DNA from: Gemmatimonadales bacterium
GTDB lineage: Bacteria > Gemmatimonadota > Gemmatimonadetes > Gemmatimonadales > GWC2-71-9
DNA length: 64,000 bases
Reading direction: 5' to 3'
Assembly (NCBI GenBank): GCA_041741375.1
Contig: JBGSKF010000095.1
Location: 41 to 64,040, forward strand
Shown here piece after piece: positions 9,343 to 50,889 of this stretch. Every line of letters starts with the position of its first letter. The stretch's first letter is position 1. Position numbers and translations under genes: made by a program. The notes beneath the pieces were generated by a model. It ran no database searches. It was not told where the DNA came from and saw nothing but the letters and a program-made list of their open reading frames with translations.

Positions 9343-10458
<1,116 letters not shown>

Positions 10459-32367: not shown

Positions 32368-33365
32368 ATGACACCTGCTCTCGCCCGCACCCTCCGTTCC
32401 GGCCGTTTCCTCCTTGGGCTCACCGCTCTGGCCGGGTGCGCCCCCGACCAGCCCCCGCCCGACGTGCCCTTCGGGGGCCCCTCGCCCTGGCCCTCCATCC
32501 GGGAAACACAAGTGCGTGAGCTCCTCCCCGCCGCGATGACGACCGCCGGTGTCGACGCCTGGATCGTCCTCGTGCGCGAGAACGCCAACGATCCCCTGGC
32601 CCTTCATGTGGGAGGAGAGAACGCGGGTGCCCCCTCCGCCATTCTCTTCTTCCGGCAGGGCAACGAGGTGCGGTCAACCGTGTTGAGCGGATTTGGCGAG
32701 GCCGTCGCCCACAGAGGGTCTCGAGCGTGAGGCCTACGCCACGGTCGTCCCCGGCACCACCACCGATGCCGACCTGGCGCGTTTTCTCAAGCGACGCATG
32801 CGGGAACTCGGCGTGGAGGACGGGTGGTCCCCGGCGCAGAACCCGAATGTCAACTCGGGGCCCGACCGCGGGCATTCCCATGCCACCGAACGCGTCATCC
32901 AGCCCGGCGACCTCATCCAGACCGACTTCGGCATCCGGGTGCACGGCGTCTGGGTGACCGACATCCAGCGCTTCGCCAATGTGCTTCGCCCGGGGGAAAC
33001 GGCCCCACCCGAGGAGGTCCAGCGGCGATGGGAAGCGGCACTCGCCGCGGGACGAGCCGCGTTCGAGGCGATGGGGCCCGGACACCGGATCCCTCGCCGT
33101 TCCCTGGGGCACCGGTCACCCGGTCGGGTACTGGGCCCACGATGCGGGGACGGGACTGAACCGGCGGGAGACCCGTCCCCTTGTGGAGGGGCAGGTGCTG
33201 GCCTTCGACAGTCTCCACGCATGGGCCCTCGACGGGAGCACCACCGCAGCGTGGGGTGATGGCACCAAGAGCTTCTCATCCGAGGAGATGGCGGTCATCA
33301 CGGCGAACGGCGCCGAGTACCTTGTGGCACCCCAGCAGAAGTTGATTCTGAGCAGAAGCCGGTAG
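32368..33365 (+). pseudogene. M24-family metallopeptidase (Xaa-Pro aminopeptidase-like) lipoprotein split over three frames
   Basis: Frame a: MTPALARTLRSGRFLLGLTALAGCA...VDAWIVLVRENANDP...FGEAVA. Frame b from about 32714: EGLEREAYATVVPGTTTDADLARFLKRRMRELG...IQTDFGIRVHGVWVTDIQR...FEAMGPG. Frame c from about 33080: LAVPWGTGHPVGYWAHDAG...SSEEMAVITANGAEYL. Two frame changes are needed. Confidence 0.65.
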
Positions 33366-33394
33366 AGCGACCGGAGGGAGGACAGCCAGGGTGG

Positions 33395-33958
33395 CTACTC
33401 GCCCCACACGGCACGGAAATATGCCGAGAGATCGATGCGGAGCGGAGAGACCGCATTTTCCGGCTGCCAGGCGAGTTCCTGATCGGCGATGGCGGGATGG
33501 TCCGCCCCGGGGGTCCAGACCTCCACCAGCCGGGCATCAAGATCCACGATCCAGTACGTCGGGACGCCAGTGCGTTGATAGAGCCGACGCTTGGTGACCC
33601 GGTCATGCCGTGCGGTAGAGGGAGACAACACCTCTGCGACCAGAAGCGGGATACCATACTCGTCCCATTCGCGGGGGGGCCGTCCCTCCACCATGCGACC
33701 CACAAAGAGATCGGGCTGGAGCATTTGGCCGGCGTGGAAGTCGAGGTCGGCGGGAGAGATGCAGAGGCCCCCGATCCGGTGTGCGCGGACATACGGAGCG
33801 ATCCGGAGCAGGAGCTCCACCACGCCGTACTGGTGGAGCGCGCGTGGGCTCGGGCTCACGAGGAGCTCGCCATCCACGAGCTCGTAGCGGTTTCCGTCGT
33901 CGGGGAGGGCGAGCACCTCCTCCCGAGTCCAGTGGCGGGCCACAGCAGGCATGCCCAT
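33395..33958 (-). CDS. Uma2-family (DUF820) putative endonuclease, tandem copy 1
   Basis: MGMPAVARHWTREEVLALPDDGNRYELVDGELLVSPSP...QPDLFV...PLLVAEVLSPSTARHDRVTKRRLYQRTGVPTYWIVD is the PD-(D/E)xK Uma2 pattern. Confidence 0.85.
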   Translation of the reverse strand: MGMPAVARHWTREEVLALPDDGNRYELVDGELLVSPSPRALHQYGVVELLLRIAPYVRAHRIGGLCISPADLDFHAGQMLQPDLFVGRMVEGRPPREWDEYGIPLLVAEVLSPSTARHDRVTKRRLYQRTGVPTYWIVDLDARLVEVWTPGADHPAIADQELAWQPENAVSPLRIDLSAYFRAVWGE

Positions 33959-34056
33959 ACGTTACGCTCGGCGAAAGTGGGGAGGCAAGGGGGCGGCATG
34001 ATCCCAACCTCGCCACCCTTCCCCCGGGCCCGACAACCCGAAAGATGCGGGCCGGA

Positions 34057-34631
34057 TCAATCGATCGGGGTATCCCCCAGGATCCTTCCGAACAGCTCAG
34101 GCAGGTCAATCTGGAGCGGTGTGATGGCGGGCTCCGGATGCCAGACGAGGAAATCCTCGGCGATGACAGGTCGGTCGGCCCCGGGGGTCCAGACCTCCAC
34201 CAGCCGGGCATCGAGGTCCACAATCCAGTAGGTCGGGACCCCGGTGCGTTGATAGAGCCGACGCTTGGTGACCCGGTCATGCCGTGCGGTAGAGGGAGAC
34301 AACACCTCTGCGACCAGAAGCGGGATACCATACTCGTCCCATTCGCGAGGGGGCCGTCCCTCCACCATGCGACCCACAAAGAGATCGGGCTGGAGCAGTT
34401 GTCCAGGTGGAAGTCGAGGTCGGCGGGAGCGATACACAGGTCCCCGATCCGGTGGACGCGGACATACGGAGCGATCCGGAGCAGGAGCTCCACCACCCCG
34501 CGCTGGTGAAGCGGCCGCGGGCTCGGGCTCACGAGGAGCTCTCCGTCCACGAGCTCGTAGCGGTTTCCGTCGTCGGGGAGGGCGAGCACCTCCTCGCGGG
34601 TCCAGTGGCGGGCCACGGCAGGCATACCCAT
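34057..34631 (-). pseudogene. Uma2-family endonuclease, tandem copy 2, 1-nt deletion frameshift near 34400-34410
   Basis: The N-terminal 75 codons are in one frame (to ...PADLDFH) and the rest (QLLQPDLFVGRMVEGRPPREWDEYGIPLLVAEVLSPS...GDTPID*) is in another. Copy 1 has TTTGGCCGGCGTGG where copy 2 has GTTGTCCAGGTGG. Confidence 0.75.
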
Positions 34632-34729
34632 ACGTTACGCTCGGCGAGTGAGAGGAGGCAAGGGGGCGGCATGTCCCCGAACTTCGCCCTCCCTCGCGGG
34701 GACGGATAACCCCAACGACGCGGGCCGGA

Positions 34730-35305
34730 TCAGTCGATCGGGGGGTCTCCCCAGATCCGCCGGAACAGCGCGGGCAGGTCAATCTCCAGCGGCGTGACTG
34801 CAGGCTCGGGACGCCAGACCAGGATGCCCTCAGCGATGACGGGCCGACTGGACCCGGGGGTCCAGACCTCCACCAGCCGGGCATCGAGGTCCACGACCCA
34901 GTACGTCGGGACGCCGGAGCGTTGATAGAGCCGTCTTTTGGTGACCCGGTCATACCGGGCCGTGGAGGGGGAGAGGACCTCGACCACCAGAAGGGGAATG
35001 TGCACATCCGACCATTCCCTGAGCGGAGTGCCCTCCCGTCGCGTCACCACGAACAGATCGGGTTGCACCAGGTGTCCAGCGTCCAGGTCAAGGTCCGCAG
35101 GGGAGAACAGCACCTCGCCCAGTCGATGTACCGCCAGCCATGACCCAATCAGCAGGTGGAACTGACCCACAACCCTCTGATGGGACCATCGTGGGGCCGG
35201 GCTCACCAGGAGCTCGCCGTCCACGAGTTCGTAGCGGTTTCCGTCGTCGGGGAGGGCGAGCACCTCCTCGCGGGTCCAGTGGCGGGCCACGGCAGGCATA
35301 CCCAT
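34730..35305 (-). CDS. Uma2-family endonuclease, tandem copy 3
   Basis: Same first 36 residues as copies 1-2, a divergent middle (RWSHQRVVGQFHLLIGSWLAVHRLGEVLFSP), and conserved LLVVEVLSPSTARYDRVTKRRLYQRSGVPTYWVVD. Confidence 0.85.
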   Translation of the reverse strand: MGMPAVARHWTREEVLALPDDGNRYELVDGELLVSPAPRWSHQRVVGQFHLLIGSWLAVHRLGEVLFSPADLDLDAGHLVQPDLFVVTRREGTPLREWSDVHIPLLVVEVLSPSTARYDRVTKRRLYQRSGVPTYWVVDLDARLVEVWTPGSSRPVIAEGILVWRPEPAVTPLEIDLPALFRRIWGDPPID

Positions 35306-35530
35306 ACGTTACGCTCGGCGAGTGAGAGGAGGCAAGGAGGCGGCATGTCCCCAACCTCGCCACCCTTCCCCAGGGCCCGATAACCCGGAAGATGCGGGCC
35401 GGATCAATCGATCGGGGTCCTGGGGTCAGTCCCACCCACCGGAGAGGGTGGCGCGCTCCCCCTGTCTCCCACATTCTTCTGTCCCGGACACCCATGTCCC
35501 GCTCACCAACCAGAGAACCCGGCAGCCCGC

Positions 35531-37615
35531 ATGGTCACATTTCCACCCCACCCCATCTACAGCGACACCGACGCCGAGGCCATGCTCTCCCGGTGGTCAC
35601 CCCGATGGGGCGAGGACCTGGTTCTACGGGTCTACACCTCACGACTCCTGGGTGGTGACCCTTCCCTGGTGCTCCATGGCGGCGGCAACACGTCCGTCAA
35701 GACCGTCGTGCGGGACCTGGCGGGGGAACCGGTCGACGTGTTGTACGTCAAGGGCAGCGGGTCGGACCTGTCGGCCATCGGCCCCGAGGGCTTTCCGGCC
35801 TGCCGTCTCGGTCCCCTCCTCCGGTATTGCCAGCTTTCCTCCCTGACCGACGAGGAGATGGTGGCGGGCCTGAGGAGCCAGATGCTCGACCCGGGAAGCC
35901 CGACCCCCAGTGTCGAGGCCCTGCTGCACGCGCTCCTCCCCGGCCGGTTCGTCGACCACACGCACGCGGATGCGGTCCTGGCGGTGCAGGATCAACCGAA
36001 CGCCCGGGACCTGGCGGAGGAGATCTGGGGGCCGTCCTTTCTCTTCATCCCCTACGTCATGCCCGGCTTCGTACTGGCGCGGCGCGTGGCGGACCTCGCC
36101 TCATCCTTCGACGGGATCCAGGGACTGATTCTGGAGCAACATGGGATCTTCACGTGGGGTAGCACCGCGCGCGAGAGCTACGAGCGGATGCTCGCGGGAG
36201 TCGTGGCCGCGGAGAAATGGCGCGCTGCTTCGCGTCCCCCCACGGTCATGCCGACCACCACCGCCCCCGATCCTGCGGCACGACACGCGACCCAACGGCA
36301 TCTTGCCCTCCTGGTCCGGGGAGTGCTGGCCGCCCATGCCCAGGGAAGGCATTTCATCACGTCATGGCGGGATGACCCTGCGATCCTGGCTCTGACCGGT
36401 CGACCGGATGGCCCGGACCTTACGGCGCGAGGCACCGTCACTCCGGACCATGTGATCCGCACCAAGCCTCGCCCCCTCTGGCTTCCTCCCCCCGAGGGCG
36501 GCACCGCATACCCTCGGAACCTCGTCGAGCAGGCCGTGGCCGGGTATGCCGATTGGTATGGGGAGTACTTTGCCCGCGGCGTGTCGCGGGCAGGACGCCC
36601 GCTCACGGCGCTCGATCCCCTTCCGCGAGTGATTCTGGTGCCCGGGCTCGGCGCCCTGACCGTCGGGCGCACGATCACCGATGCCGTGGTGGCCGGAGAC
36701 ATCGTCGCCCGCGCGGCCGCCGTGGTGCAGGAGGCCGAGACCGTCGGGCGCTATCGCCCGGTGAGTGAGGCCGACCTCTTCGACGTGGAATACTGGAGTC
36801 TGGAACAGGCCAAGCTGGCCCGGGGAGGACGCGAGGGACCGTTGGCGGGACGCATCGCCCTGGTGACGGGTGCCGCCGGCGGAATCGGACGTGCGACCGC
36901 TCTGCACCTCCTCGACCTCGGGGCCCACGTGCTGCTGACCGACAGGGACCCGGCCCCGCTGTCGGACACGGCGGACGCGCTCCGAGGCCGGCATGGTCGC
37001 CGAGTGTCCACAGCACCGTGCGACGTCACCGATACCGGCTCCGTGTCCCGTGCCGTGGAGATCGCGATCGAGACCTTCGGCGGAGTGGACCTCCTCGTCT
37101 CCAATGCGGGGACTGCTCCCTCCGGGTTGCTCCACACGCCACCGGGGGAGACGGCGCTCGAACACTCGCTGGACATCAATCTCCTGGGCCACCAACGGGT
37201 GGCGCATGCCGTGGCTCGTGTGCTGCTCGCCCAGGGGTGCGGAGGCTGCCTCCTCTTCAACGCGTCGAAGAGTGCCGTCAACCCTGGTCCCGAGTTCGGG
37301 CCCTATGCGATTCCGAAGGCGGGAGTGCTGGCCCTCATGCGGCAATATGCGGTTGATCTGGGGTCCCATGGAATCCGATCCAACGCCGTCAACGCCGATC
37401 GGATCCGGACCGGTCTCTTTGGAGACGGGGTGCTCGAGGCGCGGGCCCGGGCTCGGGGCGTGTCCCCCGAGGACTACTTCCAGCAGAATCTCCTCCGCCG
37501 CGAGACCACCGCGCGCGATGTGGCCGAGGCGTTTGGATGGCTTGCCACGGCGGAGGCCACGACGGGGTGTTTTGTGACGGTGGACGGGGGCAACGCGGCG
37601 GCCTTTCCGCGGTGA
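35531..37615 (+). CDS. Bifunctional class II aldolase / short-chain dehydrogenase (rhamnulose-1-phosphate aldolase/SDR-like)
   Basis: N-terminal HGGGNTSVK...VKGSGSDL (aldolase-type). C-terminal TGAAGGIGRATA (Rossmann), NASKSA...YAIPKA (SDR S...YxxxK). 694 aa. Confidence 0.88.
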   Translation: MVTFPPHPIYSDTDAEAMLSRWSPRWGEDLVLRVYTSRLLGGDPSLVLHGGGNTSVKTVVRDLAGEPVDVLYVKGSGSDLSAIGPEGFPACRLGPLLRYCQLSSLTDEEMVAGLRSQMLDPGSPTPSVEALLHALLPGRFVDHTHADAVLAVQDQPNARDLAEEIWGPSFLFIPYVMPGFVLARRVADLASSFDGIQGLILEQHGIFTWGSTARESYERMLAGVVAAEKWRAASRPPTVMPTTTAPDPAARHATQRHLALLVRGVLAAHAQGRHFITSWRDDPAILALTGRPDGPDLTARGTVTPDHVIRTKPRPLWLPPPEGGTAYPRNLVEQAVAGYADWYGEYFARGVSRAGRPLTALDPLPRVILVPGLGALTVGRTITDAVVAGDIVARAAAVVQEAETVGRYRPVSEADLFDVEYWSLEQAKLARGGREGPLAGRIALVTGAAGGIGRATALHLLDLGAHVLLTDRDPAPLSDTADALRGRHGRRVSTAPCDVTDTGSVSRAVEIAIETFGGVDLLVSNAGTAPSGLLHTPPGETALEHSLDINLLGHQRVAHAVARVLLAQGCGGCLLFNASKSAVNPGPEFGPYAIPKAGVLALMRQYAVDLGSHGIRSNAVNADRIRTGLFGDGVLEARARARGVSPEDYFQQNLLRRETTARDVAEAFGWLATAEATTGCFVTVDGGNAAAFPR

Positions 37616-37642
37616 CCTTGGCGATTCGTGTCCGGCGCGGCC

Positions 37643-38368
37643 TCATTGCCACCGGAGTCCATAGATCGTGAAGCCCGGCACCAGCACCACGCGGCGCGGA
37701 AAGGAAGCGAACCCCGGGCGCACCAGAAACACGCCGAGTTCCGGAGCCACGCCTCGGTCCATGCCCCCCAGGCGCACCCCCAGAAACGCGCCGACCGCCT
37801 GCATCGTGCGGGCCTCTCGCGTCACCCCCGAAAGCACCTGCTGCAGGCCCAAGGGTCTGTCGCCCGCACCGGTGAGCAGAGCCCGCGCTCCCCCATAGGG
37901 GGTCACCCGTCCCGTTTCAGACCCCGACACCGTGACGGTGGCCCCGGCGTGAGGCTTTCCCTCGAACGTGAGACCCACGGCTCCCTCCACGGCCGCGGCA
38001 AGGCCCTGGATGCCTTCCCCGATCACCTGCCGGCGCAGCGAGACGATCAGGGCGGACGGAAGGCGAACCCCGACGTCGGTCCGGGCATCGATCGGCCAAC
38101 GCACGGCCGCATCCGGCCATGGGAGGGGGATCGCGATGCTGTCCCTCAGGAAGGCTCCCGGCCATACGGTGGAGATGGTGATGCTGCGTTGGATTGTCCC
38201 TTGTGGAACTGGCCGTGCCGTGAGGCCCGAGGTGTAGGGCATGCACCCCGTACCCGCCAGCAGACAGAGAAGCCACCAGGCCCGTGTCCCTCGACCGGAC
38301 AGGTGGATTGAGCGCCATCGGATCCGGGCTCCCCGCCGTGTTCCCGGCTTCCTGGCAATGGACTCCAT
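37643..38368 (-). CDS. Hypothetical lipoprotein (beta-rich)
   Basis: Lipobox in WWLLCLLAGTGC. Coding-like GC3. The opposite-strand ORF is an R/P/G-rich artefact. No recognisable family. Confidence 0.55.
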   Translation of the reverse strand: MESIARKPGTRRGARIRWRSIHLSGRGTRAWWLLCLLAGTGCMPYTSGLTARPVPQGTIQRSITISTVWPGAFLRDSIAIPLPWPDAAVRWPIDARTDVGVRLPSALIVSLRRQVIGEGIQGLAAAVEGAVGLTFEGKPHAGATVTVSGSETGRVTPYGGARALLTGAGDRPLGLQQVLSGVTREARTMQAVGAFLGVRLGGMDRGVAPELGVFLVRPGFASFPRRVVLVPGFTIYGLRWQ

Positions 38369-38444
38369 GCCCCAAGCTGGGGGTCATCCCCTCCCCGGTC
38401 GGTGACGCACGTCACGTACCGCGAGGAGTGCCCCTGCCAGTGGC

Positions 38445-39764
38445 TCAGTCTTCGGTCGGGCGCCGACGGAGACGGTAGATCACCGCACCGATCACCAGCG
38501 CGATCCCTCCCGCCACCAGGTTGTCCCCGGTGGTGCTCAACAGAAAGGTGAGACTGACCAGGAGGGCGGCCACCGGGATGGTGGGGCCGCCGGGAAGTCG
38601 CAGAGCCCCCGGGCGGTGCCCGAATCGCTTCCGCAGGACCGGCACCGCCGCGGCGGTCCCGATATAGGTGGTGAGCCGGGCGATGATGGAGAGCATGGCG
38701 AGTTGAACGAAGGAGCCGGACAGGGCCAGGGCCAGGGCGATTCCGGTCTGGGCAATGATGGCGTTGGCCGGCGTGCGATAGCGCGGATGCACGGAGGCGA
38801 AGAGCCGGGGCCCATATCCGTCGGTGGCCAGAGCGAAGAGATACCGCGGACCGATCAGGATGGTGTTGCTGATGTTGCCCAGGATGGAGATCACCGCCCC
38901 CACCGTGAGGAAGAGCGCGGCCCAGCTCCCGGCAAACTGCCCTGCCGACTCGGCGAGGGGCGAGGGGGACTCCGCCAGACCCGGCAACGTGCCGAGCGCC
39001 ACCACCTGCACCAGGGTGTAGAGCACCGTGATGATGACAATCATCGTGAGCATGGCGAACGGCACGTCCCGCCGGGGGTTCCGGTATTCACCCGCCGCTG
39101 CGGGGGCGTTCTCGAAGCCGGCATAGGCGAAGAGCAGGAGGAGTGCTGCCTCGCCAAGGACTCCGGGCCGGGGAGCCTCCACAGCCGTGACCAGCGACCA
39201 ATCGACGAAGAAGAGCCCCACCACGACGAAGAACACCAGGGGGACCATCTTGATGACCACCAGGGCCACCGCGGTGCGAGCCCCGGAGCGGACCCCCACC
39301 ACGTTGATCCACGCCAGCAGCGCCAGCGACCCTGTGATCAGGACGACCCGGAGGATCCCCTCATCCGCGGCGGGCCAGAGAAAGGCGAGCGCCAGTGAGA
39401 ATCCGTTGGCCAGGGACGCCACCGATGCGATGCGCGCCAGCCAGGTCATCCACCCGACTTCGAATCCGACGAACGCCCCGAACGCCTCGCGGGTGTAGAG
39501 GTACGCCCCCCCCGGCTGGTCGAAGTGGCTGGCAACCTCGGCGAAACAGAGCACCAGAAGCGCCACAGCGAGGCCGGCCAGGATGACCGCCCAGGTGCTC
39601 GCGGCGCCCAGAAGCAACGCGGCGGCGGCGGGCAGGAGATAGACGCCGCTCCCGATCACGTCGTTGATCGAGAGCCCCACGAGCTGCCGTCGGGACACGG
39701 CCCTGATCAATTGGGGTGGCGATGCCCCCGGATCTGCATTCGTCTGGTCCATTCCCGGATTCAC
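38445..39764 (-). CDS. APC-superfamily amino acid permease
   Basis: 12 hydrophobic segments. N-terminal LVGLSINDVIGSGVYLLPAAAA (the G-S-G motif of APC TM1). Confidence 0.85.
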   Translation of the reverse strand: MNPGMDQTNADPGASPPQLIRAVSRRQLVGLSINDVIGSGVYLLPAAAALLLGAASTWAVILAGLAVALLVLCFAEVASHFDQPGGAYLYTREAFGAFVGFEVGWMTWLARIASVASLANGFSLALAFLWPAADEGILRVVLITGSLALLAWINVVGVRSGARTAVALVVIKMVPLVFFVVVGLFFVDWSLVTAVEAPRPGVLGEAALLLLFAYAGFENAPAAAGEYRNPRRDVPFAMLTMIVIITVLYTLVQVVALGTLPGLAESPSPLAESAGQFAGSWAALFLTVGAVISILGNISNTILIGPRYLFALATDGYGPRLFASVHPRYRTPANAIIAQTGIALALALSGSFVQLAMLSIIARLTTYIGTAAAVPVLRKRFGHRPGALRLPGGPTIPVAALLVSLTFLLSTTGDNLVAGGIALVIGAVIYRLRRRPTED

Positions 39765-39868
39765 GATTCGACCTCACAGGCGCGGGGGAAGCACGGGGGG
39801 CACACAGGGAGGGCCCCGGAAGGGAGATGAGCCACGGCGCCCACCTGCCAAGTGGACAAGGGGTCCGG

Positions 39869-40354
39869 CTATTCGGCCCAGACGGCGCGGAAGTACCGGG
39901 GCAGGTCGATCACCAGGGGTGGTATCCCGATATCGGACTGCCAGAGAAGCCTGTGTTTCGTGGTCACAGGAGCGCGGTCCCCCGGACTCCAGACCTCGAC
40001 GCTTCTCAGGTCCAGGTCGATGATCCAGTACACCGGCACCCCTGCGCGCTGGTAGTACTGGCGTTTCGTCACCCGGTCATGATGCGCCGTGGAGGGGGAG
40101 AGGGAAAGATCGGGCTGCAGGAGTTGCCCGGACCGGAAATCGAGGTCAGCCGGGGAAAAACACACGCGGCCCATCCTGTGCGCACGTACATAGGGATCCA
40201 CGAGTCTGAAGAGTTCCGCAACCCCCGCCTGATGCGCACCCCGGGGGCTGGGACTCACCAGGAGTTTCCCGTCCACCAGTTCATAACGATTTCCATCCTC
40301 GGGAAGCGCGAGGACGGAATCACGGGTCCAGAATCCAGCCGCGGGCATGCCCAT
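39869..40354 (-). CDS. Uma2-family endonuclease paralog lacking the catalytic-core segment (probably inactive)
   Basis: MGMPAAGFWTRDSVLALPEDGNRYELVDGKLLVSPSP...LQPDLSLSPSTAHHDRVTK. About 26 residues (FVGR...PLLVAEV) present in copies 1-3 are absent. Confidence 0.7.
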   Translation of the reverse strand: MGMPAAGFWTRDSVLALPEDGNRYELVDGKLLVSPSPRGAHQAGVAELFRLVDPYVRAHRMGRVCFSPADLDFRSGQLLQPDLSLSPSTAHHDRVTKRQYYQRAGVPVYWIIDLDLRSVEVWSPGDRAPVTTKHRLLWQSDIGIPPLVIDLPRYFRAVWAE

Positions 40355-40465
40355 ACGCTACGCTCGGCAAACGGGGAAAGGCAAGGGGTCCCTTCACGAG
40401 ACGCTCACGTTCTCCTCATCAACGGGGGCCTATTCTACGGATTCCCCTACCCCCGGAGAAGAGGA

Positions 40466-41854
40466 ATGTCCCGCCGAAGCTGGGCTGAACCGTGGAAGAT
40501 CAAGATGGTGGAACCGATCCGACTCACGTCGCGGGAGGAACGGGAGCGAGCCATCGCGGAGGCGGGGTACAACACCTTTCTCCTCCGCTCCGAGGACGTC
40601 TACATCGACCTCCTGACCGACTCCGGCACAAGTGCCATGTCGGACCGCCAGTGGGCCGGGATGATGTTGGGGGACGAGGCCTACGCCGGGTCTCGCAACT
40701 ACTACCGGCTGGAAGAGGCGGTGCGCCGTCATTACGGATTCGAGCACCTGATCCCGACCCACCAGGGTCGCGGGGCTGAGCACCTTCTGTCCCGCATTCT
40801 GATCCATCCCGGGGACCACATCCCGGGGAACATGTATTTCACCACGACCCGGCTGCACCAGGAACTGGCAGGGGGAAGCTTCCACGACGTGATCATCGAC
40901 GAAGCGCACGACCCCCGGTCCGAGCACCCGTTCAAGGGCAACATCGACCTGGCAAAACTCGACCGGCTGGTGGCGACGGTCGGGGCCGATCGGATCCCCT
41001 ACGTATGCGTGGCAGCCACCGTCAACCTGGCAGGCGGACAGCCGATCAGCCTGGCCAATCTCCGGGAGGTTCGCGCCTGGGCCGCGGCACACGGCATCCG
41101 CATCATCCTCGACGCGACGCGGGCGGTGGAGAACGCGTGGTTTATCCAGCAGCGCGAGCCGGGGCAGTCGGGCCGCCTGGTTGCCGACATTCTGCTCGAT
41201 CTCTGCGCCTTGTCCGACGGGGCGACGATGTCGGGGAAGAAGGACAGTCTGGTGAACATCGGGGGATGGCTGGGGCTCCGGGATCCCGACCTGGCGGAAG
41301 AAGCGCGGAATCTGGTGGTGGTCTACGAGGGGCTCCACACCTATGGCGGACTGGCGGGACGGGACCTGGAGGCGATGGCGATCGGCATCGAGGAGTCGGT
41401 GCAGGAGGATCACATCCGGACCCGGATCGGACAGGTGCTCTATCTGGGGGAGAATCTGCGCGCAGCCGGCGTCCCCATCGTCCTTCCGATCGGGGGCCAC
41501 GCCGTGTTCCTCGACGCCGCGGCGATTCTGGACCATCTCCCCCGCGACCAGTTCCCGGCCCAGGCCCTCGCGGCGGCGCTCTATCTCGAATCGGGAATCC
41601 GGGCGATGGAACGGGGAGCAGTGTCGGCGGGACGGGATCCCGTCACCGGCGAGAACCGGTTCCCTCGACTGGAACTGGTCCGGCTCACGATTCCCCGGCG
41701 GGTATACACCCAGGCGCACATGGATGTGACCGCCGAGGCGGTGGAGGCGGTGATGGCGAAGCGGGGAGAGGTCCCGGGGCTTCGGTTCGTGTCGGAACCC
41801 AAGTATCTCCGGTTCTTCCAGGCCCGATTCGAGCCCCTCATCATGAACCACTGA
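40466..41854 (+). CDS. tpl: Beta-eliminating lyase, tyrosine phenol-lyase-like (TPL/tryptophanase family)
   Basis: ATG 40466 after GGAGAAGAGGA. AGYNTFLLRSEDVYIDLLTDSGTSAMSDRQWAGMMLGDEAYAGS, THQGRGAE, GNMYFTTTR, TVNLAGGQP, MSGKKD (PLP lysine), VVVYEGLHTYGGLAGRD. As I recall them, the motif variants are those of TPL rather than E. coli TnaA. Confidence 0.88.
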   Translation: MSRRSWAEPWKIKMVEPIRLTSREERERAIAEAGYNTFLLRSEDVYIDLLTDSGTSAMSDRQWAGMMLGDEAYAGSRNYYRLEEAVRRHYGFEHLIPTHQGRGAEHLLSRILIHPGDHIPGNMYFTTTRLHQELAGGSFHDVIIDEAHDPRSEHPFKGNIDLAKLDRLVATVGADRIPYVCVAATVNLAGGQPISLANLREVRAWAAAHGIRIILDATRAVENAWFIQQREPGQSGRLVADILLDLCALSDGATMSGKKDSLVNIGGWLGLRDPDLAEEARNLVVVYEGLHTYGGLAGRDLEAMAIGIEESVQEDHIRTRIGQVLYLGENLRAAGVPIVLPIGGHAVFLDAAAILDHLPRDQFPAQALAAALYLESGIRAMERGAVSAGRDPVTGENRFPRLELVRLTIPRRVYTQAHMDVTAEAVEAVMAKRGEVPGLRFVSEPKYLRFFQARFEPLIMNH

Positions 41855-50807: not shown

Positions 50808-50889
50808 GCGAACGTGGCGAAACTGGCAGACGCGCAGGACTTAGGATCCTGTGGGGCAACCCATCCGGGTTCGACTCCCGGCGTTCGCA
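50808..50889 (+). tRNA. tRNA-Leu (anticodon UAG), type II with long variable arm, no encoded CCA
   Basis: GCGAACG/CGTTCGC acceptor, D-arm GCG-AAACTGGCAGA-CGC, anticodon stem CAGGA/TCCTG with loop CTTAGGA, variable arm TGGGGCAACCCAT, T-arm CCGGG-TTCGACT-CCCGG, discriminator A. Confidence 0.92.

Follow-up and report, generated by a model that had tools for sequence, protein, structure and literature searches.

The Uma2 family (COG4636, DUF820) is among the largest bacterial nuclease-fold families without known function, and no biochemical characterization of any member was found in the literature searched. Feder and Bujnicki described its lineage-specific proliferation, with tandem duplications and no fixed genomic neighbourhood, and reported four consecutive Uma2 genes in Crocosphaera watsonii and a share of more than 2% of all genes in Gloeobacter violaceus (Feder & Bujnicki, 2005; PMC551604). 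They suggested two possible roles for the proteins, as nucleases of a selfish, recombinogenic kind or as components of a restriction barrier (PMC551604). Uma2 expansions are also on record in Thermus and Thermosynechococcus. Here we analyse a tandem array of Uma2 genes in a 64,000-nt stretch of contig JBGSKF010000095.1 from a Gemmatimonadales bacterium (GCA_041741375.1); this whole stretch is referred to hereafter as the window, and array coordinates are positions in it. The array proteins share the sequence, fold, PD-EXX-K site and conserved histidine of the family described by Feder and Bujnicki, but the array lies in Gemmatimonadales and not in Cyanobacteria or Thermus. What is new with respect to that description is a segment-by-segment history, comprising an A/B gene pair, a chimera, conversion tracts, exchange of alleles and a shared upstream motif.

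The tuf genes and the rRNA operons are bacterial duplicates that undergo concerted evolution by gene conversion and unequal crossing-over. The array resembles them in having tracts of low synonymous divergence (dS) beside old ones, in a copy number that goes up and down, and in hybrids formed at the crossover. It differs in being homogenized only in parts of the genes, the core and tail remaining distinct, and in that some tracts appear to come from other lineages. The array is a clear but ordinary instance of tandem gene-family evolution, a textbook case that is not new in kind. We consider it probable that it consists of an old A/B pair and one extra chimeric unit, gained through unequal recombination, overlaid with conversion tracts and coding for predicted nucleases. 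This replaces the triplication of a single gene that had been put forward in a first-pass annotation of the same DNA; the pair is old and diverged, and only one unit is an addition to it.

Three head-to-tail Uma2 (PF05685) units occupy 33395-35403 on the minus strand, with stops at 34730 (copy 3), 34057 (copy 2) and 33395 (copy 1), as had been annotated. A direct-repeat search gave start-to-start spacings of 673 and 674 bp. Tandem Repeats Finder reported no array because its longest period, 500 nt, is shorter than the array period; the repeat finder and our own alignments were used for the array in its place. A tblastn search across the window revealed no Uma2 copy beyond four open reading frames (ORFs), those of the array and a distant copy, d4. 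At the same site, between aldolase/SDR and M24 peptidase genes, relatives carry an A gene (191 aa) and a B gene (187 aa), and the parts of the array are described by these types:

35306..35403, minus strand: spacer before copy 3 (sp0), promoter-like, with −35 TTGCCT at 35335-35330 and −10 TAACGT at 35311-35306
34730..35305, minus strand: copy 3, an intact A-type Uma2 gene of 191 aa (ORF, Pfam match of 124 bits, active-site residues)
34632..34729, minus strand: spacer between copies 3 and 2, with −35 at 34661-34656 and −10 at 34637-34632
34057..34631, minus strand: copy 2, a pseudogene and chimera, B-type in its core (codons 37-150) and A-type in its tail (codons 151-191)
33959..34056, minus strand: spacer between copies 2 and 1, with −35 at 33988-33983 and −10 at 33964-33959
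33395..33958, minus strand: copy 1, an intact B-type Uma2 gene of 187 aa (ORF, Pfam) ending in FRAVWGE and a stop
35198..35305 (copy 3), 34524-34631 (copy 2) and 33851-33958 (copy 1), minus strand: homogenized 5′ tract, codons 1-36
34964..35197 (copy 3), 34291-34523 (copy 2) and 33617-33850 (copy 1), minus strand: hypervariable core, codons 37-114
34856..34963 (copy 3), 34183-34290 (copy 2) and 33509-33616 (copy 1), minus strand: second conserved tract, codons 115-150
34057..34182, minus strand: A-type tail of copy 2, codons 151-191

Comparison with relatives revealed one, two or three genes at this site. The two-gene A/B state was present in L001, which is the closest relative (flank dS 0.16-0.25), and in L002-L004 and L086-L088. 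A single gene, A-type in its core and B-type in its tail, was found in L090/L091 and in L089:

L090, 2448-3011: A-core/B-tail hybrid gene between the aldolase and M24 genes
L089, 195-758: A-core/B-tail hybrid gene on a contig that ends upstream of the gene, so that only the M24 side is visible

The L091 contig is too short to include either flank, but it comes from a k=141 assembly and its fusion is therefore unlikely to be a k-mer artefact. Single A/B hybrids are the expected reciprocal deletion product of a recombination that gives three copies, and a series of one, two and three copies with reciprocal hybrids is as expected from unequal recombination between tandem paralogues. One site yields a natural series of copy numbers, reciprocal hybrids and sharp-edged conversion tracts, and the A gene, the B gene, a repaired chimera and the natural A/B fusion are concrete constructs for functional work. 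When genome contigs were scanned with the neighbouring aldolase gene, one close relative only was recovered, and the more distant Gemmatimonadota aldolase loci in the same scan had no adjoining Uma2 gene. At least three Uma2 genes also stand head to tail, in an independent array, at 3874-5848 of L092, a Gemmatimonadales-type contig, where the array adjoins a 2-hydroxyacid dehydrogenase gene and is cut by the contig end. Its period is 691, and its unit ends are 82-100% identical while its cores are 50-66% identical, giving a constant-variable-constant pattern.

Identity along the units of the window was mosaic and not uniformly diverged. Codons 1-36 were 94-97.5% identical in nucleotides (97.5% for copies 2 and 3), with no nonsynonymous divergence (dN = 0), so that the near-identity ascribed to them earlier was found. 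The same had been said of the upstream spacers, but these were near-identical only in the promoter-proximal ~45 nt; their distal part was 71-88% identical, that of copy 1 being closest to that of copy 3. Copies 3 and 2 have in common an exact run of 109 nt, and copies 1 and 2 exact runs of 104, 50, 49 and 40 nt, the first of which matches the run of about 100 nt reported before. Through codons 37-114, which in copy 3 include helix 40-60 and loop 89-105, copy 3 was 55-60% identical to copies 1 and 2, in agreement with its described divergence in the middle. Variable sites that single out one of the copies fell into 64 runs, as compared with 113 +/- 5.9 in shuffles (0 of 100,000 as low, P<1e-5). 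Along the unit, the odd copy out was first 2, then 3 and then 1, and the change from copy 3 to copy 1 fell within codons 115-150. The changing tree topologies and the runs test indicate that gene conversion between the copies is real.

Synonymous divergence marked out the same tracts. Between paralogues, dS was 0.00-0.34 in codons 1-36, where dN was 0, and 0.24-0.47 in codons 115-150, and over all variable parts it was roughly 0.8-3.9 or saturated. For the window copies alone, codons 1-36 gave 0.13-0.33 as compared with >2 in the next segment, and copy 3 differed from the other two by 0.90-3.51 in the variable segments. The A and B genes of relatives differed by 0.83-3.18, or were saturated, over the variable parts, the values for codons 37-77, 78-114 and 151-186 being 0.99-3.18 or saturated. 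Between orthologues, dS in codons 1-36 rose as high as 0.47 (copy 1 as compared with the B gene of L001, L001_B), above the flank baseline of 0.16-0.25; the low dS between paralogues is thus read as conversion and not as constraint at the DNA level. In the defined tracts, the copies of one genome resemble each other more than they do their orthologues, as is expected under concerted evolution. In L002, the A and B genes do not differ at any position from the spacer to the end of codon 36 (~205 aligned nt), and they have changes in common that no other lineage shows. The relatives' copy numbers, the identical 5′ tracts within genomes and the disagreeing topologies of the segments all bear out the unequal crossing-over with patchy conversion that the first-pass annotation had suggested. 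Its description of the array as diversifying fared less well: dN/dS was <1 in every segment (~0.17 for copy 3 and its L088 orthologue, ~0.15 for copy 1 and L001_B), the added copy is dead, and the diversity comes from imported or exchanged segments and not from positive selection on point mutations.

The middle gene combines both types. In codons 78-114 it was 98% identical to copy 1, while its tail was 74.5-86% identical to A types as compared with 58-61% to B types, the closest being the A gene of L088 (86%) and then that of L002 (82%), with copy 3 at only 74.5%. The switch from B type to A type falls in the conserved tract of codons 115-150, which is the likely crossover site. One base is missing from copy 2 after coding position 225, between 34407 and 34406, as had been annotated, and the frame is lost before D83; no other lesion was found, and the deletion is present in contigs of five runs. 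Programmed frameshifting was considered and rejected, as the context (TTCCAC before the gap and CTGGAC after it) is not slippery-looking and the catalytic residues all lie downstream of the gap.

Other segments resemble different relatives. The tail of copy 3 was 95.5% identical to that of the L001 A gene, and the spacer after copy 3 was 97.6% identical to the A-B spacer of L001. In the spacer before copy 1, the distal 84-85 aligned positions were 100% identical to the A-B spacer of L088, a locus whose flanks differ by ~15% from those of the window (dS 0.43-0.83). The core of copy 3 is likewise of the L088 type, with a dS of 0.00 from the L088 A gene in codons 78-114, and in codons 37-77 its dS from the L001 A gene was 2.2, as compared with a flank dS of ~0.2. 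These mismatches between segment and flank dS indicate that segments have moved between lineages and that conversion acted during or after the gain of the third unit.

We propose that the pair arose by tandem duplication with its junction at the last codon. The third unit would have been generated by unequal homologous recombination inside the tract of codons 115-150, joining a B-type core to an A-type tail, and the middle gene would have lost one base afterwards or simultaneously to become a pseudogene. Repeated gene conversion would keep alike the promoter region with codons 1-36, and codons 115-150, these conserved tracts being the substrate of recombination; the segments between them would be old, some having been replaced by alleles of related lineages. 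One-step crossing-over of the two resident genes, A and B, was rejected as a full account, because copy 2 has a tail, and after it a spacer, of another allelic type.

As the array was found in a metagenome-assembled contig, its reality was assessed from sequencing depth. The runs that contain the window are hot-spring and biofilm metagenomes, and the depths come from Logan k=31 contigs of five public runs of one study, which show presence and not absence. In runs X1 and X2 the flanks were at 38-50x and unique array pieces at 33-71x; placing contigs at 97% likeness gave 49-53x for the flank. The values in X1 and X2 were 49/50x for the core of copy 3, 49/51x for its tail plus spacer, 33/55x for the 119-nt piece specific to copy 2 that holds the deletion, 57/45x for the contig covering the copy-2 tail, spacer and copy-1 start, and 62/65x for the piece specific to copy 1. 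The shared 5′ tract was at 143/159x, about three times the flanks. The frameshifted 119-nt contig occurred in all five runs at single-copy depth, together with single-nucleotide polymorphisms (SNPs) specific to copy 2. Three spacers and three 3′ ends, each at single-copy depth, thus mean three units, and the array is not an assembly duplication. At position 34348 the window and X3 have A, and the X1, X2 and X4 contigs have G, the copy-1 state; this difference is either a polymorphism or a popped bubble.

Some observations weigh against an A/B pair with one added unit. A single simple crossover between A and B is insufficient, the copy-2 tail being only 74.5% identical to that of copy 3 and the internal spacers differing, so that extra conversion or foreign donor DNA would be needed. 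Contigs built at k=31 do not link the units across their exact repeats (109 nt for copies 3 and 2, 104 nt for copies 2 and 1). The piece 34679-34847, which holds the copy-3 tail and the following spacer, is missing from the contigs of X18 (~53x) and X3, in which the flank contig reaches further into copy 3, and present in those of X1, X2 and X4; the gap reflects either bubble popping or a second array haplotype. The exact repeats and the missing piece, together with the resemblance of different array segments to two different relatives, L001 and L088, would suit a three-unit path that is chimeric or duplicated, assembled from two co-occurring two-copy strains. We regard this as very unlikely. 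A mixture of two strains predicts strain-specific pieces that sum to flank depth, but three distinct spacers and three distinct 3′ ends were each at about flank depth in X1 and X2, with the shared 5′ tract at three times as much, and a linear path must contain three units if each unique piece is used once. Related strains (<90% identity), including other Gemmatimonadales, reached no more than ~13x in these samples as compared with ~48x for the genome of the window and are therefore not the source of the array pieces.

If the three copies are taken as real, the three-copy state could itself be ancestral, the two-copy relatives having arisen by separate deletions of one unit, through the 5′ tract in L001 and through codons 115-150 in L088. 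L001 does resemble the array of the window minus one unit between 5′ tracts; the L088 A gene resembles the core of copy 3 with a tail like that of copy 2, followed by the spacer that precedes copy 1; and the single-copy fusions show that deletions occur. Nevertheless, the closest relative, L001, and both outgroups, L002 and L088, are two-copy, which would require three independent losses, and a simple deletion would not predict the features that the core of the L088 B gene has in common with copy 2 and not with copy 1. Only one lesion and no relaxation of dN/dS were seen in the middle copy, as expected of a young copy. An ancestral triplet is thus unlikely, and the gain of one chimeric unit by an old A/B pair remains the preferred reading.

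Upstream of copy 3 lies a short sequence that had been annotated as the remnant of a fourth gene:

35404..35417, minus strand: the ‘stub’ CCCCGATCGATTGA, aligned with the 3′ ends of copies 3 and 2

The sequence was confirmed, but its reading as a fourth copy was not, as CCCCGATCGATTGA followed by TCCGGCCCGC precedes the first gene not only in the window but in all relatives compared (L001, L002 and L090), at any copy number. A-type genes end in WGD-PPID and a stop and B-type genes in WGE and a stop, and copies of CCCCGATCGATTGA supply the A-type genes with their final codons and stop. The stub is best read as upstream sequence that was there originally and that marks the boundary of the ancestral duplication; on the simplest reading the duplicated segment ran from the stub point to the last codon, and this placement of the boundary would account for the four extra residues and stop of the A-type proteins. 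Just upstream of the stub, a perfect hairpin of ~60 nt (GGGGTCAGGTCTTG...CAAGACCTGACCCC) was observed in L002 (~9790-9870) and L090 (~2265-2330), and the window retains only CTGACCCC of it, at 35430-35437. The hairpin may be a REP- or MITE-like element.

All units of the array, including the dead copy 2, are preceded by a leader motif, CTTGCC, ~11 variable nt and GCCGAGCGTA(A/G)C(G/C)TATGGG(C/T)ATG. It occurs four times in the window, as compared with 0.06 expected, and all four occurrences are on the minus strand (35306-35335, 34632-34661, 33959-33988 and, before d4, 40355-40384). It was also found in L001, L002, L088, L090 and L092-L098, and in all it precedes 21 genes of the subfamily from 12 sources, one of them only 39% identical in protein. 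A metagenome scan with the motif returned six loci only, all of them single genes. The layout comprises a −35 element TTGCCT, an 18-nt spacer, a −10 element TA(A/G)C(G/C)T, 6 nt and then the second ATG; M3, encoded by this ATG, is invariant and M1 is not. The leader is possibly a promoter with a leaderless start at the second ATG (its A at 35299, 34625 and 33952), in which case copies 1 and 3 would each be expressed independently from their own leader, and the invariant GCCGAGCG block within it could be an operator. A generic scan for sigma-70 and terminator consensus sequences gave no sites, and the promoter reading is based on conservation across the 21 genes and not on that scan. The presence of a common leader throughout the subfamily suggests that Uma2 genes may be co-regulated. 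A riboswitch or small RNA (sRNA) reading of the spacers was dropped, as Rfam gave no family within the array and the array spacers folded no better than shuffles (z = −1.0, +0.6 and 0.0).

The identification of the genes as Uma2 held, all four copies scoring 81-124 bits against a Pfam cut-off of 27. Copies 1 and 3, and copy 2 when read through, contain H42, P82-D83, E109-V-L-S and K123. Of these, H42, D83, E109 and K123 correspond to the PD-EXX-K site in the prediction of Feder and Bujnicki, who placed it, with the conserved histidine, at H43, D83, E111 and K127 of all3650 (PMC551604). A structure model (pLDDT 86) gave Foldseek matches to 6okh (E = 7e-15), 1wdj (1.6e-10) and 3ot2 (2.4e-10); at E <= 0.001 it matched only the four structural-genomics Uma2 structures 6okh, 9y1l, 3ot2 and 1wdj, and 3ijm, an uncharacterized protein with a restriction-endonuclease-like fold, and all five matches are without functional characterization. 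Variable positions map to helix 40-60, loop 89-105 and the tail. Purifying selection acts on copies 1 and 3, which probably encode active metal-dependent nucleases. Exact-sequence look-ups of both copies returned no record.

The distant copy lies beyond the array:

39869-40354, minus strand: d4, Uma2 gene of 161 aa, with the leader motif upstream to 40384

Its C-terminus, FRAVWAE and a stop, is like the FRAVWGE and stop of copy 1, a similarity that the earlier annotation had pointed out. An in-frame deletion of 75 nt has removed 25 codons from d4, including the strand that carries E109, and because of this loss its nuclease is probably inactive. The orthologue in L001 (4340-5023) is intact and encodes 186 aa. 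In L002 (5304-5449) the d4 ORF is absent and the promoter-like motif remains directly before an amino-acid permease gene, an arrangement that fits deletion as well as insertion. No mobile-element ends were found.

With regard to cellular role, we rank defence or DNA policing, or a selfish recombinogenic function, ahead of housekeeping; a role in defence, which had also been raised earlier, is speculative. Copies 1 and 3 match the PADLOC PDC-S03 models (E = 9e-25 and 1.4e-28). PDC-S03 is a Uma2-like phage defence candidate from a guilt-by-embedding set, defined by embedding in BREX, DISARM or type I restriction-modification (RM) loci (bioRxiv 10.1101/2024.01.29.577857). The likeness lies in the profile match; the array differs in its setting among metabolic and cell-wall genes, neither in nor beside defence systems.

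In type I R-M systems, the target-recognition domains of HsdS are swapped by recombination in the conserved parts. The array resembles HsdS in its alternating conserved and variable segments, with recombination in the former giving new combinations, but it is without inverted repeats, recombinase, methylase or restriction partner genes, and the likeness is one of analogy only. By this analogy, and as a selected diversity system, the conserved tracts could be handles for reshuffling the variable parts of a defence nuclease that set its specificity, namely helix 40-60, loop 89-105 and the C-terminal tail. The recurrence of a constant-variable-constant-variable layout in the independent array of at least three genes in L092 would fit such a system, as would A-type cores that differ between otherwise close genomes (dS 2.2 against a baseline of 0.2), new combinations in nature (copy 2, the natural fusion P0003, and P0011) and the PDC-S03 match at E = 1e-28. 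The only new combination in the genome of the window, copy 2, is however broken, dN/dS does not reach 1 in any segment, and neither a recombinase among the neighbours, nor inverted repeats in 32500-41000, nor nearby defence genes were found. The variable helix positions have a rough three-to-four-residue periodicity (a consensus reading), which fits a weakly constrained exposed face, and PDC systems are candidates only (bioRxiv 10.1101/2024.01.29.577857). A selected diversity system is thus quite unlikely. We give the same small chance to the broader proposal that in Gemmatimonadales arrays of this Uma2 subfamily, with their built-in constant-variable-constant-variable layout and common promoter or operator, recombination in constant tracts, within the genome and with DNA of related lineages, repeatedly reassorts variable helix/loop and tail modules; were these modules to determine specificity for a nucleic acid or a partner, such arrays would generate diversity in a defence or self/non-self nuclease by recombination. 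The proposal of Feder and Bujnicki that these are selfish recombinogenic nuclease genes, whose own cleavage would stimulate the duplications, deletions and conversions, we consider doubtful. In its favour, many genomes show proliferation of the family and tandem duplicates (PMC551604), the array site has one, two or three copies, at the d4 site the gene is present, internally deleted or absent, and the family has a self-contained predicted promoter. Set against this, several lineages keep the old A/B pair in synteny and under purifying selection, as would suit a host function; neither a target site nor mobile-element boundaries nor any signature of transposition was found, and the pattern is sufficiently explained by ordinary RecA-dependent recombination between repeats.

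The neighbours of the array are genes for a PBP, pirin, an M24 peptidase, an aldolase/SDR, an amino-acid permease and a beta-eliminating lyase. There was no recombinase among the called neighbour genes, no inverted repeat in 32500-41000, no methyltransferase domain among the called neighbours in L001-L004 and no defence gene among the neighbours of the window and of the relatives' loci. The G+C content of the window is 66-68%, and the best matches of its proteins are to Gemmatimonadales metagenome bins. In L086-L088 the M24 peptidase gene is missing between the B gene and pirin, unlike in the window, L001 and L002, and a pair of PIN-domain genes lies downstream of the PBP gene. The sole Rfam match in the window is a tRNA gene at 50808-50889 on the plus strand.

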